Below, piece by piece: positions 21,920 to 52,069 of a stretch of 64,000 bases of DNA. The DNA comes from Nitrospirota bacterium. GTDB taxonomy: Bacteria > Nitrospirota > 9FT-COMBO-42-15 > HDB-SIOI813. Each line of letters opens with the position of its first letter. Positions within the stretch are counted from its first letter, which is position 1. The translations under genes and the position numbers were made by a program. Location: NCBI GenBank assembly GCA_016212215.1, contig JACRGV010000047.1, forward strand, positions 2,680 to 66,679. Direction: 5' to 3'. The notes below the pieces were generated by a model. It saw nothing but the letters and a program-made list of their open reading frames with translations, had not been told where the DNA came from and did no database searches.

Positions 21920-21943
21920 CTTTAATCATTATGAAGAAGCCCA

Positions 21944-26059: not shown

Positions 26060-26823
26060 TCCTTCTCTTAAATGATACATGGTTTTTATTTAATAAATAT
26101 TTACGGATTACTTTAAGAATGCCAATGTGGGCATTGTTTACGATTGTTCAACCTCTTATATGGCTTCTCATATTTGGGCAATTATTTAAGAATATGGCAT
26201 CACTGCCTGGTTTCCCATCAGGACGCTATATGGACTTTTTCATGCCGGGCGCAATTATAATGACGGTTTTGTTTGGGACATCATGGTCTGGGGTCAGCTT
26301 ATTAAGGGAGATAAACTTCGGTACTGTAGAAAAGATGCTTGTTACACCTGTTTCAAGAATTGCTATAGTAATGAGCCGTGTCATACACGCTGCCGTTACT
26401 GTTATTGTACAATGTCTTATTATACTCATAATTGCACTGATCTTCGGTGTGAAGGTATCCGGGGTCAGCGGGGCACTTTTGAGTCTTTTTATTGTGTTTC
26501 TTCTTTCAGTAGGATTTTCAGGGATTTCAAACGGGCTTGCAATCTGGTTGAAGAGAGAAGAACCTCTCGTAGTAATTGGAAATATGATGACGTTGCCGTT
26601 GATGTTTTTTTCATCTGCAATGGTGCCAAAGAGTTTTATGCCGGGATGGATACGTGTAATAACAATGATAAACCCAATTGACTATGCAGTAGAGGCTACG
26701 AGATCGTTTTATGCCGGAGTAATTACTTCAGAGGCCATATTGATACAAATAGTATTTTTAATAGTCTTTGCACTGGCTTCTGTTTCATGGGCAACGGAGA
26801 TGTTTATAAATCAGGGAGAGTAG
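26056..26823 (+). CDS. ABC-2 type transporter permease
   Basis: 255 aa with six TM helices, translationally coupled to the upstream ATPase. Confidence 0.7.
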   Translation: MILLLNDTWFLFNKYLRITLRMPMWALFTIVQPLIWLLIFGQLFKNMASLPGFPSGRYMDFFMPGAIIMTVLFGTSWSGVSLLREINFGTVEKMLVTPVSRIAIVMSRVIHAAVTVIVQCLIILIIALIFGVKVSGVSGALLSLFIVFLLSVGFSGISNGLAIWLKREEPLVVIGNMMTLPLMFFSSAMVPKSFMPGWIRVITMINPIDYAVEATRSFYAGVITSEAILIQIVFLIVFALASVSWATEMFINQGE

Positions 26824-26885
26824 AAGATAGAATTAAGAATTAAGAATTAAGAATTAAGAATTAAGAAGTAAGAAATAAGATAGGG
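26824..26885. repeat. Heptamer tandem array (AATTAAG)x5 followed by AAGTAAG-type units
   Basis: agaattaagaattaagaattaagaattaagaattaagaagtaagaaataag. Confidence 0.9.
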
Positions 26886-27580: not shown

Positions 27581-27644
27581 AGATAGTGGATAGTGGCAAG
27601 TGGTTAGATGCAAGAAGTAAGAAGTAAGAAGAGGAAAGAACATT

Positions 27645-28424: not shown

Positions 28425-28513
28425 CTACAGTAAACAGTAAGCGGTAAGCAGTAAGCAGAAAAAACAGAAGCAAGAAATAAGAAGCAAGAAAAAATATAGA
28501 GGGGTGGATTTGT

Positions 28514-29768: not shown

Positions 29769-29885
29769 AGACAGTGAATAGTAAATAGTGAATAGTAAAT
29801 AGTGAATAGTGACAAGAAGTAAGAAGTTAGAAGCAAGACGTAAGAAGTAAGAAGATTTAACTTTTTTTAGAAAGGAGATTACAAC

Positions 29886-30239: not shown

Positions 30240-30244
30240 AAGAC

Positions 30245-30355
30245 AGTGGTTAGTGAATAGTGGTTAGTGGTTAGTGGAGTATAAAAAATACGAAGTAATA
30301 GTAAGTTGTTTACAACTAACTAACCACTCGTCACTAACCACTAACCACTAAAAAA
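30245..30355. repeat. Two heptamer arrays in inverted orientation (GGTTAGT x n ... CCACTAA x n) that can form a long hairpin
   Basis: gtggttagtgaatagtggttagtggttagtgg ... ccactcgtcactaaccactaaccact flanking about 45 nt. Confidence 0.7.
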
Positions 30356-30371
30356 AGAGAGGGGGGTGTTA

Positions 30372-32474: not shown

Positions 32475-34103
32475 ATGAACTTTTTCCTTGCAATAGCTTT
32501 AATAGGTAGTATCCTGTTTTATAACCCAGTGTTCGTGAGGGGAGAGGAGCCGCCTTCATCTGAAAGTATAAAGACTGAGGAGGCACCTCTTCCTGTACAA
32601 GAAGGCACTTCTATACCGGCCGGTACAACAGAGGTCAAGCCTTCTGCAAATGAAGAAATACCACCACAGCCCGGCCCTCAAATAGAAGCCCCTGCATTGC
32701 CGCCTGCTGAAGGTACAGTTCAGGGGATTATGGAAGAAACCGTACCTCCTTCACCTCCCCGTGGTATATTAACATGGCTCAATGAAGAGGTGTTGAAGGA
32801 TATTGAGGTAAGAGGATACCTTAAGAATGAAACTGCCTACAGATATGTGAGTCCATCTGCATTTGCGAAGATTTTAAATATACTTCAGGTTGAACCTTCT
32901 TATTCGTTTAATTCAAGTATCAAGCTAAGTGCGAGGGCATGGGTCTATTACGACCTTGCTTATGATATACAGGATGTGGGGAATATTGCACCAATTAAGG
33001 CATTTACATTCATCCAGCCGCCGGGTGCGGGAGGGGCAGAACCTAAGATAGAAAACCTTAGGACGATTCAGACGGATAAATATGGTATTGACCTCAAGGA
33101 GATTTACTTCGACCTTTTCTTCGGAAGTATGGACTTCAGGGTAGGGAAGCAGATTATCAGGTGGGGCATTGTAGAAGGCTGGCGTATACTTGACGATGTG
33201 AACCCGCTTGATTTTAAGGAACATATATTGCGGGATGTTTCCGACAGATACATACCTTTGTGGATGTTAAAGGCCGATTATTATGTCGGTCCGATTACTA
33301 TTGAAGGCTTATGGATTCCAGATTTAAAGGGGCATGAACCTGCACCGCTCCGTTCCGAATGGTCTCAGTTTCAGAAACTTCCCGGTCTGGTAAGGATCCC
33401 GAGGACTATTAAAAACAGTGAGGGCGGCTTACGAACTTCAGGTATGTTGGGTGGGTATGAATTTGCATTGACATATTTTTATACATGGGATGACTTCCCG
33501 ACTGCCTTCAGGTCAGTTGCAGGGCTTGGTCTCGGTAATATCGGCATTTCTCCGACAGTTGATTTTACCCCAAGATACAGGAGGAATACTGAATACGGGC
33601 TTGGGCTTGCAAAGAGTTTTGGGAAAATAGTCCTTGAAGGCGAAGTAGCTTATGTGGATGGAAAGTATTGGGGAACGTGCACAGGATGCACTCCAACCGG
33701 AGGAACATTCGGCGAGCTTCAAAGGGATTATTGGAAACATGTTATGGGGGTGAAAACAGTTCTTTTTGGGGCGGATATTTCTGTAAATTTTTCACAGGAT
33801 ATAATCCTGAATCATCATAAAGATATACAGCAAAAAAGACATGAAGATGCAGCCTCTCTTTTTGCAAGGAAGGAGATCCGCTATGGAACAATGGTACCTC
33901 AGCTTCTTGCGATTTCCCTTATTAATCGTCATGAGTATTTATTCAGACCTAAACTTGAATGGAGATATTCAGATAAGATAACATTCCTTTTTGGGCTTGA
34001 TATTTTCTCCGGTGACGCAGGGCCTGATCCCGGAAGGTTGAACTTCTTCGGATATTTTGATGATGATGACCGTGCCTATATGGAGGTTAAGTACAGCTTT
34101 TGA
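32475..34103 (+). CDS. Porin-like outer-membrane protein (DUF1302-like). The ORF track start at 32337 lies in a REP element; the likely start is MNFFLAIAL at 32475.
   Basis: Signal peptide, about 540 aa, beta-strand periodicity, C-terminal ...MEVKYSF. Located between the LolA-like and MMPL genes. Confidence 0.5.
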   Translation: MNFFLAIALIGSILFYNPVFVRGEEPPSSESIKTEEAPLPVQEGTSIPAGTTEVKPSANEEIPPQPGPQIEAPALPPAEGTVQGIMEETVPPSPPRGILTWLNEEVLKDIEVRGYLKNETAYRYVSPSAFAKILNILQVEPSYSFNSSIKLSARAWVYYDLAYDIQDVGNIAPIKAFTFIQPPGAGGAEPKIENLRTIQTDKYGIDLKEIYFDLFFGSMDFRVGKQIIRWGIVEGWRILDDVNPLDFKEHILRDVSDRYIPLWMLKADYYVGPITIEGLWIPDLKGHEPAPLRSEWSQFQKLPGLVRIPRTIKNSEGGLRTSGMLGGYEFALTYFYTWDDFPTAFRSVAGLGLGNIGISPTVDFTPRYRRNTEYGLGLAKSFGKIVLEGEVAYVDGKYWGTCTGCTPTGGTFGELQRDYWKHVMGVKTVLFGADISVNFSQDIILNHHKDIQQKRHEDAASLFARKEIRYGTMVPQLLAISLINRHEYLFRPKLEWRYSDKITFLFGLDIFSGDAGPDPGRLNFFGYFDDDDRAYMEVKYSF

Positions 34104-34221
34104 GAAGCAAGAAGTAAGAAGTTAGAAGTAAGAAGTTAGAAGCAAGAAGCAAGAAGTTAGAAGTAAGAAAAAGGGTGCAATCGAATCCTTGCCCCCTTGA
34201 ACCCTTTATTTAGTAAGGAGT

Positions 34222-37200
34222 ATGACAATGTTACAAAAGCATATTCAACGTATTGTACGCTTTCCGGTTACTATTATTTTACTTACTATTTTTGCGACGT
34301 TGTTTTTTGGGTACCAGTTCAAAAGCCTGTTTATGGTACTGGATCCTAAGGCACTGCTTCCGCAGGAACATCCTTATGTGAAACTTAATAATGAGATAGA
34401 GAAACAATTCGGGGGGAGCCGTGTTGTCTTAATAGGTCTGGCATCAAAGGATGGAGATATATTCAATCCTTCAGACATAGAAAAGATAAGGCGTATAAAT
34501 GAAGAAGTAAAAAAGATACCGGGTATTCTGGAAAATAATGTCGTCAGCATTGCAGACAAAAAGGTGAAGTATGTAAAGGCAGAGGGTAATTCACTTGATA
34601 TAAAGGGTGTACTTGAAGGGATTGAATATACAGATGAAGGGATGAAAGAATTAAAGGAGAGGGTATATTCAAACCCTGCATTTATAAACAGCCTAGTTTC
34701 CGCAGACGGGAAAGTTGCTGCAATTATTCTGGATTTTAAAGGTGGTGCGAGTGACTGGCAGCAGAAGGCAGGGGGGGAGCAGAAAACAGAAGTAAGAAGT
34801 CAGAAGCAAGAAGTCAGCAGTAATCAGTCAGAAGTTAGAAGCAAGAAGCAAGAAGTAAGAAATGATGAGGCTGAAGGCGGAAGGCTGAAGGCTGAAGTAA
34901 GAAATGAGAAGCAAGAGACCAGTTCCACCCATGGGGGAGGGTCTCTATCCTTTTTCCCCTCCCCCTTGACGGGGGAGGGTAAGGGTGGGGGTGGTCTCGT
35001 TGCCTCTGCTTATGCGCAGGAAGATTGGAAGAAATGGCAAAAAGGCGGGGGGGCAGAGCAGAAGCAAGAAGCAGGAAAACAAGAGGCTGAAGGCGGAAGG
35101 CTGAAGGCTGAAGCAGGAAGCAAGAAGCAAGAAGGAGGCAACACTGAAACACCTTCCTCCCCTTCGACAGGGGAAGGCACAACACCACAGACTCCCTCCC
35201 CCTCGACGGGAGAGGGCACAACATCACAAATCCCCTCCCCCTCGACGGGGGAGGGTAAGGGTGGGGGTGAGCAAGGGAAGTGGCCTGCTGGTGGCGGTGA
35301 AGGCGGTTGGGGCGGAGCCGGCGGTGGTGAGGCAAATTGGGAGCAGTGGTATGTAAGTGACTCTACTATTCATAAAAAGATACTTGAGATTGTTGATAAA
35401 TATAAAGACGCAAATACTGATATATATGTTGGCGGTTTGCCGATAGCACTTTCTTTCCTTGAGGCAGATTCATTGAGGATGACGAAGTATGTGTATCCGC
35501 TTGCCCTGATAGTGATAATGATAGTTCTATATTTTGCATTCCAGAGTATACAGGGGATGATCCTGCCGATAGTTTGTGCACTTTTAAGCGTGGTATGGGC
35601 TGTAGGGTTAATGGGTGTATTTAAGATAGCTCTTGATCCATGGAATATGATGACCCCTATCTTAATCCTTGCTGTTGCCGCAGGACATTCTGTGCAGATT
35701 TTGAAAAGATACTATGAGGAACTTGGAAATGCCCCCCTCACCCATCCCTCTCCCCATTGGGGAGAGGGTAAGGGTGAGGGGGAGCGTGGGGGTGAGGATG
35801 ATCGCCACTGGGGCGTTATCGCCTCCCGTAAGGCTGTTGTGGATTCTCTATCTAAGATAGGGCCTGTTATGATAACAGCAGGTCTTGTAGCAGCGGCGAG
35901 CTTTGCGTCACTTGTTACATTTAAGTTAAAGACATTCCAGTCTTTTGGTATATTCACAGCCTTCGGAATCCTGAGTGCACTGATTCTTGAGATGACATTT
36001 ATTCCGGCGGCGAGGTCGTTGATGAAGCCACCTAAAAGACAGTTAGCAGTTAGCAGTAAGCAGTTAGCAGGAACTCCCTCCCCCTTGACGGGGGAGGGTC
36101 GGGGTGGGGGTGGGCTACTCGACCGCTTTATGCTCTCCATTTCACGTCTTGTTACTCATCGAAGCGGGTTTGTATGGGTTGGTCTTTTGGTTGTTATTGC
36201 CTTTTCTGTTTACGGGATTGAACACTTAACTATCATAAATAGCCTGAAAGGGCTTTTCTTTGAATCAACACAATTCAGGAAGGATGATGCGGCATTAAAT
36301 AAGAGCTTCGGGGGAACTGCGACTTTTTATGTTTATTTAGAAGGTGACAAGGAAGACAGTCTGAAAAATCCTGAAGTGCTGCGTGCTATAGAGAGCCTTC
36401 AGAAAGAGATAGAGAGCGTACCTGAGGTCGGTAAGACCCAGTCGTTTGTTGACTATGTTAAATCAATGAATCAGAGTATGCATGGCGGAGACCCTGCATA
36501 TCGTGTTATTCCTGCTGACCAGCAGACAATTTCAGAATATCTCTTTCTGTTTACTATCTCAGGGTCACAGGGAGAGATGGACAGGTTTCTTGATTACCAG
36601 TATCAGAAGAGTGTTATCTGGGTATTTTTAAGGGATGACAGCACGGTGTTAGGGCAGAGGTTGATTGATATAGTTAATAAATATGGGGGGGGAGTAGAAG
36701 CAAGAAGTAAGAAGCAAGAAGTAAGAAAGGATGAGGCTGAAGGTGGAAGGCTGAAGGCTGAAGTCAGAAATGAAAAAGCAGAAGTAAGAAGTAAGACGCA
36801 AGAAACAACGGTTCCCTCCCCCCTTGCGGGGGAGGGTCAGGGTGGGGGGGATCGCTTCCCTCCCGGCATCAAGGTTGGTGTTGCCGGCAGTATCCCTGTT
36901 ATGATGGCGCTCAATCAGACGATGGTGGCAGGTAAGATATGGAATATCCTGCAGATAGCAGGGATTGTGTTTGTTATATCCGCCATTGTTCTCAGGTCTG
37001 TGATTGGGGGTATCCTTGTGCTTCTGCCGCTTGGTGTAGCGGTACTTGTGAACTTTGGGGTACTTGGAATAGCAGGAATAGGGCTTGGTGTGGGTACTGC
37101 GGCCATCTCTGCAATGGCAGTCGGTTTCGGGGCTGATTATTCGATTTATATGGTGTACCGGCTTAGGGAAGAAGCAAGAAGCAAGAAGCAAGAAGAAAAA

Positions 37201-37479
37201 GAAGAGAAGTCAGAAGTAAGAAGTCAGAAGCAAGAAGCAAGAAGTAAGAAAGAAGATATTGATGAGGCAATTAAAAGGACACTCTTAACTGCAGGTAAAG
37301 CTATTGTTTTTGTAGCCGCAGCAATGAGCGTCGGCGGTATTACGCTTCTGTTCACTGGATATTATTTGCACATGGAAGGTTTTTTAGTTCCACTTGCCAT
37401 GTTTACAAGCTCTTTGTCAACATTGATTGTATTACCTGCGGTGGTGGCTTTGGTGAGGCCGAGGTTTATCTATAGGTAA
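34222..37479 (+). CDS. MMPL/RND-superfamily transporter (HpnN-like) carrying five in-frame insertions of repeat elements
   Basis: Two sets of six TM helices plus periplasmic loops (GGLPIALSFLEAD..., AGHSVQILKRYYEE, GFGADYSIYMVYRL). The hydrophobic cores are interrupted by low-complexity segments encoded by heptamer and REP repeats. Confidence 0.75.
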   Translation: MTMLQKHIQRIVRFPVTIILLTIFATLFFGYQFKSLFMVLDPKALLPQEHPYVKLNNEIEKQFGGSRVVLIGLASKDGDIFNPSDIEKIRRINEEVKKIPGILENNVVSIADKKVKYVKAEGNSLDIKGVLEGIEYTDEGMKELKERVYSNPAFINSLVSADGKVAAIILDFKGGASDWQQKAGGEQKTEVRSQKQEVSSNQSEVRSKKQEVRNDEAEGGRLKAEVRNEKQETSSTHGGGSLSFFPSPLTGEGKGGGGLVASAYAQEDWKKWQKGGGAEQKQEAGKQEAEGGRLKAEAGSKKQEGGNTETPSSPSTGEGTTPQTPSPSTGEGTTSQIPSPSTGEGKGGGEQGKWPAGGGEGGWGGAGGGEANWEQWYVSDSTIHKKILEIVDKYKDANTDIYVGGLPIALSFLEADSLRMTKYVYPLALIVIMIVLYFAFQSIQGMILPIVCALLSVVWAVGLMGVFKIALDPWNMMTPILILAVAAGHSVQILKRYYEELGNAPLTHPSPHWGEGKGEGERGGEDDRHWGVIASRKAVVDSLSKIGPVMITAGLVAAASFASLVTFKLKTFQSFGIFTAFGILSALILEMTFIPAARSLMKPPKRQLAVSSKQLAGTPSPLTGEGRGGGGLLDRFMLSISRLVTHRSGFVWVGLLVVIAFSVYGIEHLTIINSLKGLFFESTQFRKDDAALNKSFGGTATFYVYLEGDKEDSLKNPEVLRAIESLQKEIESVPEVGKTQSFVDYVKSMNQSMHGGDPAYRVIPADQQTISEYLFLFTISGSQGEMDRFLDYQYQKSVIWVFLRDDSTVLGQRLIDIVNKYGGGVEARSKKQEVRKDEAEGGRLKAEVRNEKAEVRSKTQETTVPSPLAGEGQGGGDRFPPGIKVGVAGSIPVMMALNQTMVAGKIWNILQIAGIVFVISAIVLRSVIGGILVLLPLGVAVLVNFGVLGIAGIGLGVGTAAISAMAVGFGADYSIYMVYRLREEARSKKQEEKEEKSEVRSQKQEARSKKEDIDEAIKRTLLTAGKAIVFVAAAMSVGGITLLFTGYYLHMEGFLVPLAMFTSSLSTLIVLPAVVALVRPRFIYR

Positions 37480-37616
37480 GCCATGGAGAGAAGTAAGAAG
37501 TAAGAAGCAAGAGGCAAGAAGTAAGAAGTAAGAAGTAAGAAGATAGAAGTAAGAAGATAGAAGTAAGAAGTAAGAAGTTAGACATAAGACATAAGACATA
37601 AGACTTTAGAGGCAAG
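37480..37616. repeat. Long heptamer tandem array (AAGTAAG, AAGATAG, ACATAAG variants)
   Basis: agaagtaagaagtaagaagcaagaggcaagaagtaagaagtaagaagtaagaagatagaagtaagaagatagaagtaagaagtaagaagttagacataagacataagacataagac. Confidence 0.9.
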
Positions 37617-37982
37617 ATGGCGATACGGAGTTATAGGGATTTAAATGTATACTCACTTTCATATAGCCTCGCTATGGAGGTATTTCATATAACATTACGT
37701 TTTCCAAAAGAGGAAATGTATTCCTTGAGCAGCCAGATTAGGAACTCCTCAAGGTCGATACCTGCAAATATTGCTGAAGGGTGGGCAAAGCGAATATACG
37801 AGAATATTTTCAAACGGCACCTTGTTGATGCAATAGGCTCAACATGCGAAACTATAGTATGGTTAGATTTTGCATTAGACTGTAAGTATATTGACAACAA
37901 TAATCATTTGAAATTATCTGAAAATTATAAAGAAGTTGGAAAAATGTTAAATGGCCTACTTGAAAACTGGCAAACCTATTAA
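37617..37982 (+). CDS. Four-helix-bundle protein (23S rRNA intervening-sequence protein family)
   Basis: 121 aa. YRDLNVYSLSYSLAMEVFHIT...PANIAEGW matches the family signature (dL.VyQ.a..l...i......P.NIAEG). Confidence 0.7.
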   Translation: MAIRSYRDLNVYSLSYSLAMEVFHITLRFPKEEMYSLSSQIRNSSRSIPANIAEGWAKRIYENIFKRHLVDAIGSTCETIVWLDFALDCKYIDNNNHLKLSENYKEVGKMLNGLLENWQTY

Positions 37983-39033
37983 GTCGAAATCCTTTCTTGC
38001 TTCTATCTTCTTGCGTCTTGTTTCCCGTTTCTTACTTCTTACTTCTTACTTCTTACTTCTTACTTCTATTTTAGCTCCCCGCCCTGCCTACGCTGCCCTT
38101 CAGCCCAGCCTTTCTATTGTAACAGGTTATTATATGCCGAGGCTTGATGAGTTGAACTATATTTTAAAATATAGAGAGGTTGAGCTTGGCCCCCGTAATA
38201 CAGAAGCAAAACCCTCACCATATCCTGTCATATATCAGGGCTATAGCCCTGAAGGTATGCCTAAGATGAGTCCTAAGTCCCCAAAGTTCGGACTCCAATT
38301 TCAGGTTGATATTAATCCCAGGTATTCTGTGTTTATTGGAAATAGTGTTGCTACTTATGATTCCGAGAAAAGAGACGTGAGGTCATTCTTTGTGGGTTTT
38401 TCAATACCTTCTGACCGTGTAACAAGGTTTTCCCTTTCATTGAATCAACTATGGATAGGGGTTAAGAGGAACTGGATATTTGAGGAAAAGGGGAAGCCAG
38501 AAGAAAGAAGCAAGAGGCAAGAAGCAAGAAGTAAGAAGGAAGAAGACGGAAGCAAGAAGCAAGAAGCAAGAAGTCAGAAACAAGAAGAAAGTCAGAAGCA
38601 AGAAGATAGAAGTAAGAAGGCAGAAGAGAAGCCTGCCTCAAAGCTTTATGTGGAGATGGGGGTGCTTGCTGTAACAAGGGCATATCTTACTACAGACGTG
38701 TGGTTGCATGTTTACGCCCCTGAGGAGGGTTTTGATTTCTATAAGGTTACGGAAACTCTGTCACAGGGATACGGATATGCAACCTTCATAGGTATAGGCG
38801 GGGAATACTTCATAAAGAAATGGATGTCATTAGGCTTGGATGCGGATTATACTATAGGCGGTGTCTCAAAGATAAAATATGCCAGGTACTTTACAGTAGA
38901 CCCTCTGGAGAAAGATATTATTAAACCAGGGGATAAGGTTACATATACAGATCTAAAGGTTGGCCGCGTTGCCCCATTGTTTATAAACTTAGAGGGAGTG
39001 GATATAAAGGGGCAGGTAAGGTTTTATTTTTAG
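37951..39033 (+). CDS. Outer-membrane beta-barrel protein with an in-frame repeat insertion. The likely start is the TTG near 37996, giving signal peptide (M)RLVSRFLLLTSYFLLLTSILAPRPAYA.
   Basis: Ends ..GQVRFYF (C-terminal aromatic). The central KPEERSKRQEARSKKEEDGSKKQEARSQKQEESQKQEDRSKK is encoded by heptamer repeats. The signal peptide is encoded by the reverse complement of the same repeat. Confidence 0.5.
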   Translation: MAYLKTGKPIKSKSFLASIFLRLVSRFLLLTSYFLLLTSILAPRPAYAALQPSLSIVTGYYMPRLDELNYILKYREVELGPRNTEAKPSPYPVIYQGYSPEGMPKMSPKSPKFGLQFQVDINPRYSVFIGNSVATYDSEKRDVRSFFVGFSIPSDRVTRFSLSLNQLWIGVKRNWIFEEKGKPEERSKRQEARSKKEEDGSKKQEARSQKQEESQKQEDRSKKAEEKPASKLYVEMGVLAVTRAYLTTDVWLHVYAPEEGFDFYKVTETLSQGYGYATFIGIGGEYFIKKWMSLGLDADYTIGGVSKIKYARYFTVDPLEKDIIKPGDKVTYTDLKVGRVAPLFINLEGVDIKGQVRFYF

Positions 39034-39299
39034 AAGAAAGGTGATTAGGCTGAAGTAAGAAGTAAGAAGTAAGAAGTAAGAAGATAACAACACCAGCCAT
39101 CAGGTTATTCCCGCATATCAGGTTACAGGTTATACACTTCAAATTTTTATATGTAACATTTATGCACACCTAATATAATTATAATAAAAACAATGAGTTA
39201 TGATGGTATTTATGGTTATAGCAGGCTATGTTTGTATAAAAGATATACACTGTTAAAGGTATTAGGTTATAAGTTGATACATATTCACATACTATGTTC

Positions 39300-39410
39300 T
39301 ATTTTCTTGCTTCTTGCTTCTTGCTTCTTGCTTCTCTATATTTTTTCTAACCTCTTGATTTTACAGCTTTGTTTTATTTATTCACTATTCACTATTCACT
39401 ATTCACTGTT
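39300..39410. repeat. Heptamer tandem arrays (TCTTGCT x4; TTCACTA x4)
   Basis: tcttgcttcttgcttcttgcttcttgcttc and ttcactattcactattcactattcactg. Confidence 0.85.
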
Positions 39411-39496
39411 TTATGGCATACCCCTTGCAATATCCTTATTCGTGTACGCTGAATAAAAACAGCGAAACTGACAATGAAAGGAGGTGAAACGTAATA

Positions 39497-44131: not shown

Positions 44132-44855
44132 CGTTCATCCGAAAATCCCTTCCGGCGGGGTAAGAAAACCCCGCCTACCCATATCTATGAGGATAGGCGG
44201 GATATTCTTGTCCCGTTGATTTTCATGGCCCTTTGTGAGCGCCCCGCTCATGAGGGTTCATCCGAAAATAACCCCCCCATGCCCCCCCTTGAACAAAGGG
44301 GGGGATTGCCGTTGGCCATTGAGCACCAAAGGAACTTTCCCCCCCCTTAACAAGGGGGGGCTTGGGGGGGTGGTTTTCATCCTCCTTTGTGAAACCTCCG
44401 TTTCATGACAGTTCACCCGAAAATCTCCGCTAATTGCCCGTCATGGTTCGACAGGCTCACCATGACACCTTGGCTGTCATTCTGAGAAATGTAGCGTCGG
44501 GGTTTATCCCCGACGTCTAAAGCTCATCTACCGTAGACCTCCAAGTTAGCCTTCTGAGACGTTGGGGATAAACCCCAACGCTACGAAAACCATTGTACAG
44601 AATTTTCATCCCCCTTTGTGAGCGCCCCGCTCATGAGGGTTCATCCGAAAATCAACCCCATCCCCACCCTACCCCTCCCCTTGAAGGGGCGGGAATCAAC
44701 ATAGCCCCCTCTCCCTCAGGGAGAGCTGCAATTAAATTCCTTCCAAATCCCTCCCCCCTCTTTTGCGGGGGGAGGCAGGAGGGGGGATCAGGGTGAGGGT
44801 GGGGTTTTCATTGCCCTTTGTGGTCGCCCCTCATGACGGTTCTATGGCATAGTTA
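44132..44855. repeat. Large intergenic block of REP modules, including the inverted copy of the roughly 250-bp composite element and a distinct 160-nt nested-hairpin element
   Basis: gggacaag modules (44150..44230), polyC/polyG palindromes (44270..44390), a nested hairpin (44440..44600), and the inverted composite copy (44625..44855). Confidence 0.85.
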
Positions 44856-47117
44856 TTGCAAGAATGCAATAACAAAGTGAGTAGAAATAAATTACCTAAT
44901 ACCTTATCACATCCATATATAGCCTTTATCCTTTTTGCATCAATTGGTACCTTGATATATTTGAATTCCCTTAATAATCCATTTCAATTTGATGATTTTA
45001 ATGTAGTAGTTAATAATTTCAAGATACAAGAAATAAAGAATATACCCTACTTTTTTATTAATCCAAGATTCGGAGCCAACAATCCAATGGCCGCCGGACA
45101 CTACAGGCCTATTTTATTTACAAGTTATGCAATCAATTATGCTATAGGCGGGTTGAATACCCTTGGCTATCATATAGTTAATCTGGCTTTTCACATTGGG
45201 ACAGCGTTTTTAGTTTTCCTCATAGTGAAGGGAATGTTGGAAGACAGTAAGCAGGTAGCAGTAAGCAGTGAGCAGATAGCAGAAAACAAACAGAAGTTAG
45301 AAGCAAGAAGTCAGACGACAGCAGACATCCAGCGGGACAAGAATGTCCCGCCTATAGATAGTCGGGGTTTTCTAACGCCTACGTTTGTAGATAGTCGGGG
45401 TTTTCTAACCCCGATGTTTGTTGCCTCAGTGGCTTCTGGTCTTATTTTCCTTGTCCATCCATTTAATTCAGAGGCTGTAAATTATATAACAGCCCGTTCG
45501 AGTATAATGAGCGGGTTCTTCTATTTGTTGGGGTTTTATTGCTGGGTGCTTTTTAGAAGTCAGAAGAAAGAAGCAAGAAGCAAGAAGTTAGAAGCAAGAA
45601 GTAAGATTTCAGAAGAAAGAAGTCAGAAACAAGAAGTTAGAAGTCAACAGGCAGAAGAAAGAAGTAAGAAGGCAGAAGTAAGAAGTAAGATAGGGGAAGA
45701 CCGGCAAGGTTTTTCTAACTTCTTACCTCTTACCTCTTACTTCTATCTTTTTTCCCTCCTCGCCTTTATCGCCGGTATGTTAAGTAAAGAAGTGGTGATA
45801 ACTTTGCCGGTAATGTTGTGGTTGTATGATTTGTATGGGTTTAGCAGAAGCAAGAAGTTAGAAGCAAGAAGTAAGAATCAAGAAGATAACACAGTAATAA
45901 ATAAGTATGCAGTATTTGATTTGCGTACCTATATCCCCTATCTCCCTTTTGTTCTTCTTGTAGCGATACCGTATCTGCTAGTACGTCTCTTTTCACTCGG
46001 CAGGGTGCTTGATAAGTTTCAGAGGGGTTTTATTACACAACTGTTCACAGAGTTGCCTGTTCTTGTGAGACATTGGCAGATGTTTTTTATCCCAAAGGGC
46101 TTTAGCCTGGTTCACGATGTGGATGTATTCCATGGCATGACATGGTTGTTTATGGTTTCAGTTGTAATATTGATATTATATCTGTGTGGTATTGTGTATC
46201 TATTTTTGTATGGAAAAGGCCGTTGGCGTATTATATCTTTTTTTATGCTGTGGTTTTTTATTGTACTGCTTCCAACAACAATTATTCCACTTAATGCAAT
46301 CTTTCAGGAAAACCGGGGTTACATGGCCTTGTTAAGTTTTGCAGTACCGGCAGGGATTGCAATTGAGACTTTGTTTAATTATAAAAAAAGTGTAGTATTG
46401 AAGGTTATCGTGCTGTTATTATTATTGGCGGTTTATGGAAGTATTACGATGCAGAGAAACATTGTATGGGGGGATGATATTAAGTTATGGAAGGACGCAT
46501 TAGAGAAGTCTCCGCAATCCGGGATTTCCTTTGCAGGATTATCTCTTGCCTATAAGAACAGTGGTGATACATTTCTCTCAATTGAAACTGCGAAAAAGGG
46601 AATTTCTGTAGAACCTGATAGCTATTATCTCCATATGCTTATAGGAGCAGATTTTCAGGCACTTGGTCAAATGGATGAGGCCGCTAAAGAATATGAAAAT
46701 GCGCTTAATATAGATGCAGGTTTCGGTAATGTATGGAATGACCTTGCAGTTTTGTATATAGAAAAAAACAACCTTGAACGTGCGGAGCAGTGCTTAAAAA
46801 ATGGGATAAAGGTTTGGAAGGATTTGCCTCCTCTTTACTATAATCTGGGCAGGATAGATATAATGCGCGGAGATTTTGTTAATGCTATTAGCCACTATGA
46901 AACAGCAGTAAAATTGTATCCGGATTACCTTACTGTGAGGTATGACATGGGAGAGGCTTATGAAAAACTTAATAAGATAGATCAGGCAAAGGAACAGTAC
47001 AGAGAGATTATTAAATATAAAACAATTAATCTTAAAAATTTGAATTACAGGTATGGGTTAGATGAAAAAATAGCAGGGGAAATTATAGCAAAGGCGGAGC
47101 AGAAGTTTAATCAGTAA
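44856..47117 (+). CDS. GT-C-fold glycosyltransferase (PMT_2/DUF1736, TMTC-like) with C-terminal TPR repeats; paralog 1 of 4
   Basis: About 11 TM helices. First-loop NPFQFDDFNVV acidic motif and HYRPIL motif. C-terminal TPR units. In-frame heptamer and REP insertions. Confidence 0.7.
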   Translation: MQECNNKVSRNKLPNTLSHPYIAFILFASIGTLIYLNSLNNPFQFDDFNVVVNNFKIQEIKNIPYFFINPRFGANNPMAAGHYRPILFTSYAINYAIGGLNTLGYHIVNLAFHIGTAFLVFLIVKGMLEDSKQVAVSSEQIAENKQKLEARSQTTADIQRDKNVPPIDSRGFLTPTFVDSRGFLTPMFVASVASGLIFLVHPFNSEAVNYITARSSIMSGFFYLLGFYCWVLFRSQKKEARSKKLEARSKISEERSQKQEVRSQQAEERSKKAEVRSKIGEDRQGFSNFLPLTSYFYLFSLLAFIAGMLSKEVVITLPVMLWLYDLYGFSRSKKLEARSKNQEDNTVINKYAVFDLRTYIPYLPFVLLVAIPYLLVRLFSLGRVLDKFQRGFITQLFTELPVLVRHWQMFFIPKGFSLVHDVDVFHGMTWLFMVSVVILILYLCGIVYLFLYGKGRWRIISFFMLWFFIVLLPTTIIPLNAIFQENRGYMALLSFAVPAGIAIETLFNYKKSVVLKVIVLLLLLAVYGSITMQRNIVWGDDIKLWKDALEKSPQSGISFAGLSLAYKNSGDTFLSIETAKKGISVEPDSYYLHMLIGADFQALGQMDEAAKEYENALNIDAGFGNVWNDLAVLYIEKNNLERAEQCLKNGIKVWKDLPPLYYNLGRIDIMRGDFVNAISHYETAVKLYPDYLTVRYDMGEAYEKLNKIDQAKEQYREIIKYKTINLKNLNYRYGLDEKIAGEIIAKAEQKFNQ

Positions 47118-47127
47118 GTTTTAATGT

Positions 47128-49353
47128 ATGAAAGAAGATATGTTCGGGTTCAGAAAAGGGTGTCACCGGTATCTCATAGTCTTTTGTATCTTTTTATTTG
47201 CAGGTCTGCTCATCTATTGGAATTGCTTAAGTAATCCTTTCCAGTATGATGATGACGGCGTGGTTGTTAAGAATACTAATATTAAAGATGTTAAAAATAT
47301 CCCGCTTTTTTTTATAAACCCAAGACTGTCTGAAAGTAATCCTCTGTATGCAGGACATTACAGACCTATTGTTTATGCAAGTTATGCGGTTAATTATGCT
47401 ATCGGGGGATTAAACCCATTCGGGTATCATGTTGTTAATCTGGCGATTCATATTGGTTCTGCGTTTTTGATATTTCTTATAATGAAGGCAATGTTAGAAG
47501 ACAGGAAGCAGTCAGCAGTAAGCAGTGAGCAGATAGCAGAAAACAAACAGAAGTTAGAAGCAAGAAGTCAGACGACAGCAGACATCCAGCGGGACAAGAA
47601 TGTCCCGCCTATAGATAGTCGGGGTTTTCTAACGCCTACGTTTGTAGATAGCCGGGGTTTTCTAACCCCGATGTTTGTTGCCTCAGTGGCTTCTGGTCTT
47701 ATCTTCCTTGTCCATCCATTTAATTCTGAGGCTGTAAATTATATAACAGCCCGTTCGAGTATAATGAGCGGGTTCTTCTATTTGCTGGGGTTTTATTGCT
47801 GGGTGCTTTTTAGAAGTCAGAAGCAAGAAGTAAGAAGTAAGATAGGAGAAGACCATCGTGGTTCTTCTAATTATTTAAATCTAACTTCTAACTTCTTACC
47901 TCTTGCATCTTACCCCTTACCTCTTACCTCTTACTTCTATCTTTTTTCCCTCCTCGCCTTTATCGCCGGTATGTTAAGTAAAGAAGTGGTGATAACTTTG
48001 CCGGTAATGTTGTGGCTGTATGATTTGTATGGGTTTAAGTCAGTAAGCAGTAAACAGTTAGCAGTAAGCAGTAAACAGACAGAAGGAAGTAACACACAAT
48101 GCCCCTCCGAATCTGCTCACCGCTCACTGCTTACTGCTGACTATCTTTTAAACTGGCGTAACTATGTTCTATATCTCCCTTTTGTTCTTCTTGTAGCAAT
48201 ACCGTATCTGCTTATGCGTCTCTTTTCCCTTGGGAAGGTGCTGGACAAGTTTCAAAGGGACATAGTAACTCAAATACTTACTGAGGTACCGGTTTTATTT
48301 AAACACTGGCAGATGTTTTTTATCCCAAAGGGTTTTAGTCTGGTACATGATGTGGACATTTTTCATGGTATGACGTTGTTGTTGATGGTTTCAATCGTAT
48401 TATTTATTTTGTACTTGGTAATTACTCTATATCTTTTTTTGTCCGGTAGTAGATACCTGCGGGTTGTATCTTTCAGTATGATGTGGTTCTTAATTGTACT
48501 CCTTCCAACAACGATTATGCCTTTAAATGCGATCTTTCAGGAAAACCGGGGATACCTTGCAGTTGTATCATTCTCTTTATTAATCGGGGTTGTACTAATG
48601 GAACTCGGTAAGAGGGTCAACAGGACAACAGTTATAAGCATTACTGTTATTTTGTTTATTATCTACGGAGTAATTACAGTCAAAAGGAATTTTGTATGGG
48701 GAGACAGTATCAGGCTTTGGAAGGATGCGGTAGAGATTGCGCCAGGTTCCGGAATAGCATACGCCGGTTTATCTGCAGTATATAGAGAGAGGGGAGACAT
48801 GTTTCTTTCAATTGAAACAGCAAAAAGGGGGCTTAATGCGGAACCGGACAATTACTATTTACACCTTAATCTCGGGCGTGACTACTTTCTTTCAGGAGAT
48901 GTTGACAAGTCCATACAGGAATATGAAAATGCTTTAAGAATTGATCCTAATGATGCGGTTTCAATGAATGAGCTTGCAACACTTTACGTTAAAAAAGGAG
49001 ATATTGAACAAACTGAGATATTCTTGAAGAAGGCAGTCCGGAAATGGTATAGTCTGCCCCCTCTTCACTACAATTTGGGCGTGGTGCTTGTAGGACGTGG
49101 AAAATTATCAGAGGCCGTGACGGAGTTTCAGGAGGCTATTGCCATTTATCCGGCATATCTTCGTGCAAGGTATGAATTAGGTGAAGTCTATGAAAAAACC
49201 GGCAGGTTAGACATGGCAAGAGAACAGTACAATGAAATTATCAGGTATGGCTCACCTGATACCGCTACTGTAGAACTGTTGTATGACCAGGATAAAAGAA
49301 TCGTGGATCGGATTGTAAGTATGGCCAGGCAAAAACTCGGGAATAAACAATGA
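47128..49353 (+). CDS. GT-C-fold glycosyltransferase (TMTC-like) with C-terminal TPR repeats; paralog 2
   Basis: Same architecture as paralog 1 (NPFQYDDDGVVV, HYRPIV). A block of about 330 nt is near-identical to paralog 1. Confidence 0.7.
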   Translation: MKEDMFGFRKGCHRYLIVFCIFLFAGLLIYWNCLSNPFQYDDDGVVVKNTNIKDVKNIPLFFINPRLSESNPLYAGHYRPIVYASYAVNYAIGGLNPFGYHVVNLAIHIGSAFLIFLIMKAMLEDRKQSAVSSEQIAENKQKLEARSQTTADIQRDKNVPPIDSRGFLTPTFVDSRGFLTPMFVASVASGLIFLVHPFNSEAVNYITARSSIMSGFFYLLGFYCWVLFRSQKQEVRSKIGEDHRGSSNYLNLTSNFLPLASYPLPLTSYFYLFSLLAFIAGMLSKEVVITLPVMLWLYDLYGFKSVSSKQLAVSSKQTEGSNTQCPSESAHRSLLTADYLLNWRNYVLYLPFVLLVAIPYLLMRLFSLGKVLDKFQRDIVTQILTEVPVLFKHWQMFFIPKGFSLVHDVDIFHGMTLLLMVSIVLFILYLVITLYLFLSGSRYLRVVSFSMMWFLIVLLPTTIMPLNAIFQENRGYLAVVSFSLLIGVVLMELGKRVNRTTVISITVILFIIYGVITVKRNFVWGDSIRLWKDAVEIAPGSGIAYAGLSAVYRERGDMFLSIETAKRGLNAEPDNYYLHLNLGRDYFLSGDVDKSIQEYENALRIDPNDAVSMNELATLYVKKGDIEQTEIFLKKAVRKWYSLPPLHYNLGVVLVGRGKLSEAVTEFQEAIAIYPAYLRARYELGEVYEKTGRLDMAREQYNEIIRYGSPDTATVELLYDQDKRIVDRIVSMARQKLGNKQ

Positions 49354-49886
49354 AGTTTGAAATATAATCAGAAAGAGATTGGTAGTTATGAACCGTCATG
49401 AGCCTTCGGCTCACAAATGTTGATGAAAATGAGGCCCCCCCACCCGGCCCCCCTCCTGCCTCTCCCCCCGTAAAGGAGGGGGGAGGATTTGGTAGAAATT
49501 TAATTGTAACTCTCCCGCCGGGGGAGAGGGAGGCTGACGTTTATTCCTCTCCCTTGACGGGAGGGGGTTAGGGGGAGGGTGAGCTATGGAGATTTTCGGA
49601 TGAACCCTCATGAGCCTTCGGCTCACAAAGGTACATGAAAATGAGGCTCAGGATGAAACAACCCCACCCTCACCCGGACCCTCTCCCTGAGGGAGAGGGT
49701 GCTTAGTTTTTATCCCCTCCTCTTCAAGGGGAGGGTTAGGGTGGGGATGGGGTTGATTTTCGGATGAACTCCCATGAACCGAGGGTTCACAAAGGGCCAT
49801 GAAAATCAGCGGGACAAGAAAGTCCCGCCTATCCTTATAGAAATGGATAGGCGGGGTTTTCTTACCCCGCCGGAAGGGATTTTCGG
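49354..49886. repeat. Large intergenic REP block between glycosyltransferase paralogs 2 and 3
   Basis: Diverged copy of the composite element (tcatgagccttcggctcacaaa x2, ctccccccgtaaaggaggggggag, ctctcccgccgggggagag, cctctcccttgacgggaggggg) plus ccctccccttcaaggggagggttagggtggggatgggg and gggacaagaaagtcccgcc..ggcggggttttcttaccccgcc. Confidence 0.85.
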
Positions 49887-51947
49887 ATGAAAGATTGGTT
49901 GGATAAGCGATATGTAATTTTTATTATCTTCTTGCTCATAGGGATTCTGACGTATTGGAATAGCTTTGGTAATAGTTTTCATTATGATGATGAAATGGTC
50001 ATTGTTTATAATAGGAATGTCACCTCTCTAAAAAATATCCCGTATTTCTTTATAAATCCTAAGATGATGTTTTCGGATCTGATGCCGGGTGGGCATTATC
50101 GTCCTCTTGTGCTTACTTCTTATGCTGTCAGCTATGCGTTCACTCAATTAAATCCTGTAGCCTATCATCTATTCAACTTTTTCTTCCACGTGGGGTCGGC
50201 GTTTTTGATATTTCTTATAGTGAAGGCTATGTTAGGCAGCATTCAGCAGTCAGATGACGCCCATCGGGACAAGAATGTCCCGCCTATAGATAGCCGGGTT
50301 TTTCTAACGCCTACGTTTGTAGATAGCCGGGGTTTTCTAACCCCGATGTTTGTTGCCTCAATGGCTTCCGGTCTGATTTTTCTTGTCCATCCGTTTAACT
50401 CAGAGGCTGTGAACTATGTTACTGCCCTCTCCAGCGTAATGAGCGGGTTCTTTTACCTTCTGGCATTTTATTGCTGGGTGCTTTTTAGAAGTCAGAAGCA
50501 AGAAGTAAGAAGTAAGATAGGGGAAGACCGGCAAGGTTTTTCTAACTTCTTACCTCTTGCTTCTTGCTTCTATATAGCTTCCCTCCTCGCCTTTATCGCA
50601 GGTATGTTAAGCAAAGAGGTAGTGATTACACTTATAGTCGTGTTATGGCTGTATGATATGTATGGGTTTAGGTCAGTAAGCAGTAAGCAGTCAGCAGTTA
50701 GCAATGAACAGTTAGCTGATAAAACTGCTTACCGCTCACCGCTTACTGCTGACTATCTTTTAAACTGGCGAACTTATATCCCATATATTCCTTTTGTCCT
50801 TCTCGTAGCGGTGCCTTATTTATTAATAAGATTATTTTCACTTGGGAAGGTGCTTGACCATTTTCAGAGGGATATATGGACTCAGTTGTTTACAGAGCTT
50901 CCGGTTCTGGTCAAACACTGGCAGATGTTTTTTATACCTGTTGACCTCACTCCCCTTCATTTAGTGGAAATATACAGGACTTATTGGTCTTTCCCTGTAT
51001 TATTATCCACGGTCATTATCACAGCATATTTAATTATCGCATTTATTCTTTCACGGGTTCAGAGGCGGACTTTACGCATTATCTCCTTTTTTATGTTCTG
51101 GTTTTTTATAGTTCTCTTACCCACAACTATAATCCCTTTAAATGATATTTTTCAGGAAAACCGCGGTTACCTTGCAATGGTAAGTTTTGCAGTCCTCGCC
51201 GGTGTAGTAATAGGCGAGTTGGGGAGGATAAAGATTAAATGGGTTTCAATGGCAGTTCTGGTCGGTTTAATTATTTTTTACGCCGGCTGTACAGTACAAA
51301 GGAATAAGGTTTGGAAAAGTGAGATGGCCCTCTGGACCGATGCATTGAAGAAGTCTCCAAGGTCTCCGGCAGTTTACACAGCATTAGCTGTTGAATACAA
51401 AAGGGCAAGAAAGTTTAACATGGCTATAGATGCATCAAATAAGGCTATTTTACTGGGGGGCAATGATAATTTCTTTATCCATGACAATCTTGGGAGAATC
51501 TATTCTATGCAGGAAAAGTATGACCTTGCTATAAAGGAGTTTGAACAGGCAGTAAAACTGTATCCCTATAAATCGGATACTCATAATGAATTAGGTCATG
51601 CCTATTTTATAATGGGCAAAATAGAGTTAGCGGAAAAGGAGCTTAAGGAGGCTATTAAGTACGATCCAAAATTCTCCAGACCTTATTATAATCTAGGGAT
51701 CTTGAGCAGGCGGGGTGGAAAATCTTCTGAGGCTATAAATTATTTTAAGACTGTAATTTCATTAAATCCGGCACATTCGAAATCGTGGTTTAATTTAGGG
51801 TCATTGATGGAAGAAATGGGCAACAAGGATGAGGCATTAAGATATTACAACAGGGCAGTTCAGGTAACTGCAAAGGATGAACAAGACGTAGCCCAGGAGG
51901 CACGTGAGGCTATTGACAGGCTTGAGAAGATGAGGGCAGCAAGATAA
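49887..51947 (+). CDS. GT-C-fold glycosyltransferase (TMTC-like) with C-terminal TPR repeats; paralog 3
   Basis: NSFHYDDEMVIV, HYRPLV; TM domain followed by TPR repeats. The same REP-derived RDKNVPPIDSR..FLTP loop is present. Confidence 0.7.
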   Translation: MKDWLDKRYVIFIIFLLIGILTYWNSFGNSFHYDDEMVIVYNRNVTSLKNIPYFFINPKMMFSDLMPGGHYRPLVLTSYAVSYAFTQLNPVAYHLFNFFFHVGSAFLIFLIVKAMLGSIQQSDDAHRDKNVPPIDSRVFLTPTFVDSRGFLTPMFVASMASGLIFLVHPFNSEAVNYVTALSSVMSGFFYLLAFYCWVLFRSQKQEVRSKIGEDRQGFSNFLPLASCFYIASLLAFIAGMLSKEVVITLIVVLWLYDMYGFRSVSSKQSAVSNEQLADKTAYRSPLTADYLLNWRTYIPYIPFVLLVAVPYLLIRLFSLGKVLDHFQRDIWTQLFTELPVLVKHWQMFFIPVDLTPLHLVEIYRTYWSFPVLLSTVIITAYLIIAFILSRVQRRTLRIISFFMFWFFIVLLPTTIIPLNDIFQENRGYLAMVSFAVLAGVVIGELGRIKIKWVSMAVLVGLIIFYAGCTVQRNKVWKSEMALWTDALKKSPRSPAVYTALAVEYKRARKFNMAIDASNKAILLGGNDNFFIHDNLGRIYSMQEKYDLAIKEFEQAVKLYPYKSDTHNELGHAYFIMGKIELAEKELKEAIKYDPKFSRPYYNLGILSRRGGKSSEAINYFKTVISLNPAHSKSWFNLGSLMEEMGNKDEALRYYNRAVQVTAKDEQDVAQEAREAIDRLEKMRAAR

Positions 51948-52069
51948 TGAAACATCCATGAGCGTACCGCTCACAAAGGATGATGATAATGACGGGACAA
52001 GAATGTCCCGCCTATCCTCGTAGAAATGGATAGGCGGGGTTTTCTTACCCTGCCGGAAGGGATTTTCGG
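51948..52069. repeat. REP modules between paralogs 3 and 4
   Basis: catgagcgtaccgctcacaaagg and gggacaagaatgtcccgcctatcctcgtagaaatggataggcggggttttcttaccctgcc. Confidence 0.8.

Follow-up and report, generated by a model that had tools for sequence, protein, structure and literature searches.

A 23S rRNA intervening-sequence protein gene between inverted heptanucleotide arrays in a Nitrospirota genome, and its possible bearing on bacterial heptamer repeats

Introduction

Genome-wide arrays of tandem heptanucleotide units have been on record for cyanobacteria since 1990; reports from Beggiatoaceae, Xanthomonas, Geobacter, and Bacteroidetes came later, and the arrays have neither a known origin nor a known binding partner. 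The cyanobacterial STRR heptanucleotide repeats are said to have been described by Mazel in 1990. Members of this class include the TAACTGA arrays of Beggiatoaceae, Cyanobacteria, and Bacteroidetes (PMC4679880), the GGGAATC arrays of Xanthomonas and GGGGA(C/T)T arrays of Nostoc (PMC4692102), and the GGACCGG and MTYCTGA arrays of Geobacter metallireducens (PMC2700814); in Xanthomonas campestris ATCC 33913 the GGGAATC arrays number 186, and 70 inverted pairs are among them (PMC4692102). This article concerns a 64-kb stretch of a Nitrospirota bacterium genome (assembly GCA_016212215.1, contig JACRGV010000047.1, positions 2,680 to 66,679), hereafter the window, in which a gene of the family of 23S rRNA intervening-sequence proteins (IVP, also S23p) lies between inverted arrays of heptamer units, at positions 37473-38090.

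Intervening sequences that carry an open reading frame (ORF) for an S23p protein are found in 23S rRNA genes of Leptospira, Coxiella, and Brucella. In Coxiella, either 2 or 3 GACAGAT units, depending on the strain, stand upstream of the S23p ORF in an element with a 28-bp stem, and excision by RNase III has been shown for the intervening sequences of Coxiella, Salmonella, and Leptospira (PMC4990558). The IVP/S23p family is represented by two crystal structures and was still called uncharacterised in a 2024 study; the member XCC0516 (PDB 2GSC) has been described as a homopentamer (PMC4990558). Already known, then, are genome-wide heptamer arrays (PMC4679880, PMC4692102, PMC2700814) and ORF-bearing intervening sequences with inverted repeats (PMC4990558). 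In the open-access literature, with most subscription journals outside this scope and prior mention therefore possible, no report was found that couples the IVP family in general with complementary heptamer arrays, nor one that ties dispersed heptamer families to IVP; the link between IVP and heptamers appears there only in the Coxiella study (PMC4990558), and nothing was found on heptamer repeats in Nitrospirae. The portions of the papers on the described heptamer families that were available likewise contain no link of arrays to IVP/S23p.

The window shares with the ORF-bearing 23S intervening sequences both the same PF05635 cargo family and the placement of the ORF, which occupies the loop between terminal inverted repeats that pair into a long stem. 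It departs from them in that its cassette lies between protein genes, its arms are far longer (about 100 nt), its 3' arm is translated in the next gene, and its units are scattered through the surrounding genome. The window also resembles the described heptamer families: tandem 7-nt units, usually 4-5 per array, are present at many loci of a genome, as examined here in the window and in the loci of four relatives, most of them between genes and some within, convergent pairs are frequent, and related units are mixed. The window differs from those families in its units (AAGAAGT, AGTGAAT, CAGTAAG), in its phylum, and in the far larger share of arrays that stand in frame in recognisable proteins; moreover, its arrays abut stop codons, whereas the TAACTGA arrays of Beggiatoaceae abut start codons. 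An earlier sequence-only reading of the window, which drew attention to its 7-nt repeats, did not mention that such arrays form a class already described.

A probable intervening-sequence-type cassette

The interval 37473-38090 is probably an intervening-sequence-type cassette, in which an IVP/S23p gene occupies the loop and inverted arrays of one heptamer family form the stem. Its anatomy is clear. The 5' arm (37473-37616, forward strand) consists of about 13 units of the (AGAAGTA)n type, with AGAAGCA, AGAGGCA, and AGAAGAT variants, followed by (AGACATA)x3.6; Tandem Repeats Finder (TRF) calls it at 37489-37582 (13.4 copies) and 37580-37604, and its end, AGAGGCAAG, runs in heptamer register into the ATG of the loop gene. 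This gene (37617-37982, forward strand) encodes a 121-aa four-helix-bundle protein that is matched by Pfam PF05635 (23S_rRNA_IVP; E 2.5e-31), by NCBIfam TIGR02436 (E 1e-28), and by XCC0516 of PDB entry 2GSC, which holds five chains (E 5e-8); an exact-protein look-up returned no record of the same sequence. The 3' arm (37990-38090, reverse orientation) comprises the degenerate units TTCTTGC, TTCTATC, TTCTTGC, and GTCTTGT, and then a perfect (TTCTTAC)x5.6 array at 38029-38067, the upstream and downstream arrays being exact reverse complements of each other. Folding of the RNA of 37470-38100 predicts a closing stem of about 100 bp (37473-37575 paired with 37990-38090) at -184.5 kcal/mol, with a z of -6.9. 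The sequence-only reading had flagged the interval 37480-38095 for its repeats and passed over the cassette formed by the IVP gene and its inverted arrays.

The cassette does not lie in a 23S rRNA gene. Scans of the window for tRNA genes and Rfam families returned no RNA gene or family, and the neighbours of the cassette are protein-coding, with an MMPL transporter gene on one side and an outer-membrane-type gene on the other. The latter (37951-39033, forward strand), which has no family match and is recognised by its translation and by orthologues in three related loci (L002, L003, and L004), takes its N-terminus from the 3' end of the cassette and from the 3' arm. The plus strand of this arm encodes FLLLTSYFLLLTS, the hydrophobic core of the presumed signal peptide; in the N-terminal region of the protein, which may be a signal peptide, this core is joined with a basic start and an AYA-A motif. 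The downstream protein has in this way acquired a new N-terminus from the cassette. The same gene also contains an internal in-frame array at 38493-38627 (EERSKRQEARSKKEEDGSKKQEARSQKQ).

The closest relatives of the MMPL protein come from groundwater and sediment Nitrospirae metagenome-assembled genomes (62-65% identity over the best segment), and the loci so related differ both in what they carry at the cassette site and in their content of AGAAGTN-type arrays, which number 10 per 10 kb in L004, 5.3 in L005, and 1.4 in L002, with none above background in L003. An orthologous cassette, with an IVP orthologue 78.5% identical to that of the window, is present at the same syntenic site in L004. 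In L003 the site is a 31-nt gap without a cassette, and the downstream orthologue has a different N-terminus with an unrelated signal-like sequence. At exactly this syntenic site L002 has a gene (13063-13664 of that locus) that resembles REP-associated tyrosine transposases (RAYT), as judged by a match to NCBIfam NF047646 with an E of 2e-19 that falls below the curated cut-off; the ORF has no Pfam match. It is flanked by GTAGTCGCAGGCT-type repeats, which also occur in frame in the MMPL gene of the same locus, where they are translated as VAAGFSLRNQGGHGRNLKVAATP.

IVP genes and short-period arrays in other bacteria

A metagenome scan with the window IVP protein yielded 79 loci with proteins of 43-73% identity, and as their GC content spans 0.31-0.64, these loci must come from many taxa. 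Across them, the density of period-7 arrays is 2.59 per kb up to 250 nt from the IVP gene, as against 0.217 per kb at distances greater than 500 nt. After removal of near-duplicate loci, an array was present upstream of 20/49 IVP genes but of only 17/245 other ORFs of the same loci (p 1e-8), downstream of 25/49 versus 17/245 (p 3e-12), and on both sides of 17/49 versus 5/245 (p 6e-11). The same periodicity is evident without array calling, in that the identity of the flanks with themselves at lags of 7, 14, and 21 nt is 0.44, 0.43, and 0.43 upstream and 0.44, 0.41, and 0.40 downstream, compared with 0.26-0.28 in controls, and the flank exceeds the control 95th percentile at 48 of 65 upstream and 45 of 67 downstream sides. 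In four loci of 19-20 kb (L034, L042, L059, and L062), arrays are found at the IVP gene only.

Although the arm units vary by lineage (AGAAGCT, GATCAGT, GTTAGAG, AGTCGGC, and others), the two arms of a locus vary together: the mean distance between the upstream unit and the reverse complement of the downstream unit is 1.47, against 2.74 after permutation, with none of 2000 permutations as low. Arrays dispersed elsewhere in a locus also resemble the IVP arms of that same locus (mean distance 1.95, against 2.76 when permuted, and again 0/2000 as low). IVP genes are hence associated with complementary short-period arrays across many lineages, and within a locus the dispersed arrays resemble the arms of its IVP gene. 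In some loci the 5' arm is very long, with 190-446 nt of heptamers, and far exceeds the 3' arm (1957-2402 in L008, 9722-9964 in L042, and 9356-9548 in L054).

Plasmids extend this distribution. Among 72,556 plasmids, tblastn with the IVP protein found 22 matches, namely 21 cyanobacterial ones (13 of them from Nostoc) and one from Azospirillum, and short-period tandem arrays, mostly inverted, stand on both sides of the gene in 14 of the 16 regions that were read. The period is 7 around the IVP genes of Nostoc flagelliforme, N. edaphicum, Anabaena sp. 90, and Pseudanabaena. A strict 7-nt ruler is ruled out by a clade of Nostocales plasmids with 8- and 9-nt units around the IVP gene, so that period 7 is the rule without being absolute. 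The cassette architecture is conserved across bacterial phyla.

Two loci, L069 and L090 (Azospirillum lipoferum), have the same architecture in rRNA. Each carries an ORF homologous to the window IVP gene within a 23S rRNA gene, between arms made of five heptamers and their complements, and the motif AGAGGCAAGATGG at the start codon is common to the window and L069. Two real 23S rRNA intervening sequences are therefore of the same arm design. GGGAATC repeat #15 of Xanthomonas campestris ATCC 33913 extends over the start of XCC0516, which belongs to the IVP family and is the protein solved in PDB 2GSC.

Other genes adjoin some of the plasmid-borne family members. In Anabaena sp. 90 pANA02 (L092, 3001-3369) and Pseudanabaena galeata (L093, 3001-3360), an array-flanked four-helix-bundle gene lies between cas6 and cas4 in type I-D CRISPR-Cas operons, a placement that may be the reason for an earlier "cas-associated" label of the four-helix-bundle family. 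On the Nostocales plasmids L098, L100, L101, L103, and L086, the four-helix-bundle gene adjoins a gene for a tyrosine recombinase/integrase.

Heptamer arrays in the window

Arrays throughout the window were called by TRF and by stringent and lenient autocorrelation scans. The stringent scan found 31 period-7 arrays, together with 17 at the doubled period of 14; no array was called at the remaining periods between 3 and 15, or in Markov-1 resamples that keep the dinucleotide frequencies of the window (5 per period). The lenient scan found 53 arrays with a median of 4.6 copies (interquartile range 4.0-5.7), the typical array having 4-6 units; 12.5% of intergenic bases and 2.1% of coding bases belong to arrays. 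About half of the arrays are within long ORFs, in frame in real genes. Arrays occur on both strands and are built of AAGAAGT, AGTGAAT, CAGTAAG, AGGCTGA, and other units. None is identical to CCCCAGT, TTGGTCA, CAACAGT, TAACTGA, or GGGAATC, the described units that were compared; the nearest approach is CAGTTAG at 36040-36070, one base off the reverse complement of TAACTGA. On the sense strand, purine-rich arrays outnumber pyrimidine-rich ones by 33 to 12 (p 0.0025). Among arrays between co-directional genes, 9/17 start from 2 nt before to 11 nt after the end of the upstream gene. No target-site duplications are evident at the array borders.

Much of the sequence-only reading is borne out by these scans: all 15 of the places at which it had located arrays contain period-7 arrays by TRF, all 10 of its unit variants (AAGTAAG, AAGCAAG, AAGTCAG, AAGTTAG, AATTAAG, AGTGAAT, CAGTAAG, CAGTGAG, CCACTAA, and GGCTGAA) are present, and its proposal of a single diversifying family on both strands is supported. 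Its statement that arrays occur in nearly every intergenic gap was too broad, as they are present in 17 of the 31 gaps of at least 30 nt, and the conserved AGT core that it proposed is missing from AGGCTGA, AAGAATT, AGACATA, and AGAAGCA. It had also considered that the arrays might be artefacts of assembly or chimerism. This is ruled out by an independent k-mer assembly of run SRR12113407, three contigs of which match the window without mismatch through imperfect arrays and break off within the most perfect ones; when four other window proteins were looked up, the contigs that came back were all from this one run and identical to the window.

Several solo arrays illustrate the usual arrangement. 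The composite array at 29773-29854 (forward strand) starts 4 nt past the upstream stop codon and consists of (AGTGAAT)x5.7 followed by (AAGAAGT)x5.9, and this two-part order of AGTGAAT-type and then AAGAAGT-type units recurs at 865-951, 27582-27631, and 28427-28490. An array of AGAAGTA, AGAAGCA, and AGAAGTT units (9.6 copies; 34103-34169, forward strand) starts at the stop codon of a DUF1302 gene, upstream of the MMPL gene; the equivalent gap in L003 is 13 nt long and has no array. In the intergenic (AGAATTA)x7.4 array at 26822-26880 (forward strand), the TAG of the upstream gene is in heptamer register. On the reverse strand, the type II secretion operon includes the solo arrays of 9246-9311, which are the reverse complements of TCTTACA x4.4 and CTGCTCA x5.3; these, like the arrays at 10357-10402 and 21217-21265, are purine-rich on the transcribed sense strand.

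Inverted pairs also occur without an IVP gene. At 30245-30351 (forward strand), (AGTGGTT)x4.7 and (ACTAACC)x4.7 flank a 41-nt loop to give an ORF-less hairpin, and the RNA of 30240-30365 is predicted to fold at -41.9 kcal/mol (z -5.9). The 463-nt gap 39034-39496 holds at 39052-39407 (forward strand) a forward (GAAGTAA)x4.6 array and, 220 nt on, reverse (TTCTTGC)x4.6 and (TATTCAC)x4.1 arrays, with a small ORF without family match (39193-39456) between them. A tblastn search of the loop of the inverted pair 39052-39335 found no IVP remnant, and this structure may be a decayed cassette or one with a different cargo. Perfect arrays by TRF include 38029-38067, 39052-39083, and 39304-39335.

Arrays translated within genes

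Arrays within genes are read in frame, as the sequence-only reading had held, and show the 7-residue peptide periodicity that it had deduced, such that sense-orientation arrays give peptides of the EVRSKKQ type, while antisense arrays give LLLTSYF-type peptides in membrane and signal segments. The MMPL/RND-type transporter gene (34222-37479, forward strand), identified by Pfam MMPL and by its translation, provides the clearest case. It has at least five in-frame array insertions (34788-34911, 35060-35138, 36040-36070, 36696-36804, and 37169-37250), and an alignment with three orthologues places them in variable loops between blocks that are invariant in all four proteins. Array positions are kept in a 76%-identical orthologue, and two of the insertion sites are common to L004 only. 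In-frame arrays also make up part of the C-terminal extension of an ABC-transporter ATPase (25815-25957 within ORF 24647-26059, forward strand; TRF and Pfam), and are present in ORFs 11061-11528 and 21254-21919 of the type II secretion operon.

A complete ORF-less inverted-array unit is translated within a membrane/TPR protein (45555-45744, forward strand; TRF), its forward arm reading RSQKKEARSKK... and its reverse arm FLPLTSYF. Equivalent units are found in three tandem paralogues (47812-47938, 50487-50571, and 52700-52826), and the predicted RNA folds of the units in the four paralogues have z values of -5.2, -3.5, -2.4, and -8.2. It appears that in-frame arrays are tolerated where the resulting peptide is harmless, EVRSKKQ in loops and tails and LLLTSYF in membrane and signal segments.

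Avoidance of stop codons, which the sequence-only reading had drawn from an apparent replacement of AAGTAAG by other units in coding copies, concerns the phase and not the unit. AAGTAAG itself is not avoided, accounting for 34% of the units in coding copies; what is avoided is its TAA in frame, which was seen in 0/19 cases, compared with 9/25 and 11/28 for AAGTAAG in the other two codon phases. This exclusion from one codon phase gives coding arrays a super-period of 21 nt.

Other repeats and gene content of the window

Besides the heptamer arrays, the window carries further repeat families. A G-rich palindromic element, CCCTCCCCTTGAAGGGGAGGG and variants, occupies intergenic positions 1004-1024, 2752-2772, 3853-3873, 12704-12724, 18869-18923, 44673-44693, and 49679-49735, and is also found in frame in the MMPL gene (35156-35255 and 36816-36836), where it is translated as PSPLTGEGKGGGG or PSPSTGEG and includes a 39-nt tandem triplication. 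Long intergenic gaps are filled by composite MITE-like blocks (2580-2927, 12540-12734, 18930-18995, 44132-44855, 49354-49892, and 51948-52075) in which common modules recur: ATTTTCGGATGAAC 15 times, TTCACAAAGGGCCATGAAAAT 11 times, and the hairpin GGATAGGCGGGGTTTTCTTACCCCGCC 7 times. In the tandem membrane/TPR paralogues, a 33-nt hairpin-containing unit, TAGATAGCCGGGGTTTTCTAACCCCGACGTTTG, forms an in-frame tandem duplicate (DSRGFLTPTFV x2) at the same place in three of the four genes and occurs once in the fourth (45355-45420, 47612-47677, 50287-50352, and 52533-52565).

The region 445-2498 encodes an archease-RtcB RNA ligase pair, and 3921-18825 a long minus-strand type II secretion/pilus-like operon with GspC, D, E, F, J, K, M-like, and PilM genes. 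Gene orientation turns from minus to plus near 22 kb, where GC skew changes sign (cumulative minimum; region 20000-23000) and a 511-nt AT-rich divergent gap (22376-22886) holds inverted CACTAAC x3.7 and AGTGAAT x3.1 arrays. A replication origin as the cause of the strand bias was set aside, the turn of the skew coinciding with the switch in gene orientation; origin features were not searched for.

A possible common origin and its alternatives

The association of IVP genes with complementary arrays raises a possible, and still tentative, reading in which IVP/S23p proteins are the partner of bacterial heptamer arrays in general. The IVP gene with its inverted arms would represent the autonomous form, and hairpins and solo arrays its non-autonomous derivatives, among which this reading counts the STRR, TAACTGA, GGGAATC, and AAGAAGT families; arrays of about 4-5 units, present as RNA or single-stranded DNA, would serve as binding sites for the pentameric protein, which would so govern their processing, stability, or spread, and the 23S intervening sequences would be the subset that landed in rRNA hairpin loops. 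It is probable, as part of the cassette reading given earlier, that the remaining arrays of the window are the same repeat family in reduced forms, as solo arms, ORF-less arm-loop-arm hairpins, and in-frame copies. Judging from the 23S intervening sequences, the RNA stem of the cassette may form and be cut by RNase III. Slipped-strand mispairing, which the sequence-only reading had put forward as an origin and which is documented in other species (PMC4990558, PMC4679880, PMC4692102), is a plausible means by which arrays could lengthen and shorten in 7-nt steps, and the dispersed arrays may, again by analogy, derive from the cassette arms or be maintained together with them.

Two known systems offer parallels. 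As with REP/REPIN sequences and their RAYT genes, inverted copies of a repeat that is dispersed through the genome enclose a small gene, and the related locus L002 has at the same syntenic site a RAYT-like gene with repeats of its own. The IVP protein differs from RAYT in being a four-helix bundle without HUH/tyrosine catalytic motifs, and the window repeats differ from REP in being tandem heptamers and not 20-40-nt palindromes. No HUH/Y1 tyrosine transposase was found as the cassette gene itself, the RAYT-like gene being confined to L002. Rickettsia palindromic elements, reportedly described by Ogata in 2000, are said to be small repeats that stand in frame in protein genes and are translated in tolerant regions. 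The window arrays resemble them in their in-frame insertion and in adding peptide segments to tolerant regions, but are unrelated in sequence, consist of tandem arrays or array hairpins of variable length, and give a hydrophilic or hydrophobic peptide according to their orientation.

A number of observations weigh against the account of the cassette and of the dispersed arrays given here. Only 1 of about 50 arrays of the window adjoins an IVP gene, most having no visible link to one; about one quarter to one third of IVP flanks lack a period-7 signal, 2 of the 16 plasmid regions lack arrays, the Nostocales plasmid clade has a period of 8 or 9 around its IVP gene, and in a minority of loci (L056, L071, L088, and L093) the arrays are direct and not inverted. 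The 79 metagenome loci are relatives of one query and hence not phylogenetically independent. The 3' arm lies within the downstream coding sequence, such that a cut by RNase III there would damage the downstream mRNA. To our knowledge, the IVP fold has no catalytic activity, and no mechanism of dispersal can therefore be named.

Among the alternatives, it is conceivable, if doubtful as a full account, that the arrays are host regulatory elements, selected in their own right and acting at the RNA level as unstructured, purine-rich, Shine-Dalgarno-like spacers or as protein-binding sites that tune translation or processing within operons, which would be compatible with an origin from cassettes. 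The purine-rich bias of the sense strand, the filling of short gaps between co-directional genes by arrays, and the similarity of AAGAAGT and AGAGGCA units to TAAGGAGGT all accord with such a role, as do the position of the Beggiatoaceae TAACTGA repeats just upstream of start codons (PMC4679880) and the altered output of recO/recF reporters upon heptamer deletion in Nostoc 7120 (bioRxiv 10.1101/2022.06.06.494920). Yet the window arrays abut the upstream stop codon and not the downstream start, half of them are inside coding sequence, orthologous gaps in L003 are without any array, and the units differ widely by lineage, many of them not being Shine-Dalgarno-like. It is unlikely that the arrays are plain microsatellites, produced by slippage anywhere with a 7-nt unit favoured by the polymerase, and piling up by IVP genes in unconstrained intergenic DNA, with neither an element nor a partner protein involved. 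Heptamers are the commonest class of long simple sequence repeats in many bacteria (PMC4679880, PMC4692102), a polymerase footprint has been invoked to explain them (Mrazek 2007, summarised in PMC4679880 and PMC4692102), copy number varies in 7-nt steps between strains of other species, and most arrays of the window are solo. Slippage of this kind would nevertheless leave unexplained why arrays stand on both sides of so many more IVP genes (17/49) than other ORFs (5/245), why the two sides are reverse-complementary and co-vary across lineages, why 20-kb loci such as L034, L042, L059, and L062 have arrays at the IVP gene only, why the arms of real 23S intervening sequences are built of heptamers, and why AGTGAAT-type units recurrently precede AAGAAGT-type ones.

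Both of the more specialised mechanisms raised by the sequence-only reading have fared less well. Spread by an enzyme, whether transposase or reverse transcriptase, that is dedicated to writing or dispersing the arrays and has its gene in another part of the genome, is suggested by the RAYT-like gene of L002, which with its own dispersed repeats, in frame in MMPL as well, occupies the cassette site, and by the distant kinship of IVP with Avd, which partners the reverse transcriptase in diversity-generating retroelements. It is very improbable nonetheless, as neither enzyme was found among about 45 selected window ORFs (of at least 90 aa) that were scanned, the array borders show no evident target-site duplications, and the Avd models score the window protein at 30.7 bits against a cut-off of 80 (NF033474) and 33.5 against 40 (PF22296). 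Phase variation, by which the gain or loss of one 7-nt unit would toggle genes, is likewise very unlikely. A change of one unit in a coding array would indeed shift the frame, several arrays are perfect (those listed above from TRF), and envelope proteins are among those affected; most coding arrays, on the other hand, are imperfect mixtures in which the 21-nt super-period damps slippage, they stand in frame in housekeeping-type genes or within operons, including loops of the transporter and the ABC ATPase with positions kept in the 76%-identical orthologue, and arrays are spread over all gene classes.

Significance

The unexplained heptamer arrays and the unexplained IVP/S23p family may be one problem. 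If the two are coupled as suggested, the heptamer arrays would gain a testable candidate protein, the origin of ORF-bearing rRNA intervening sequences would be explained, and a new example of a selfish repeat system would be added to those known. In practical terms, these arrays break short-read assemblies. The window also illustrates how such repeats feed the evolution of proteins, with one 7-nt unit giving rise, according to its orientation, either to charged linkers or to membrane and signal-peptide segments.

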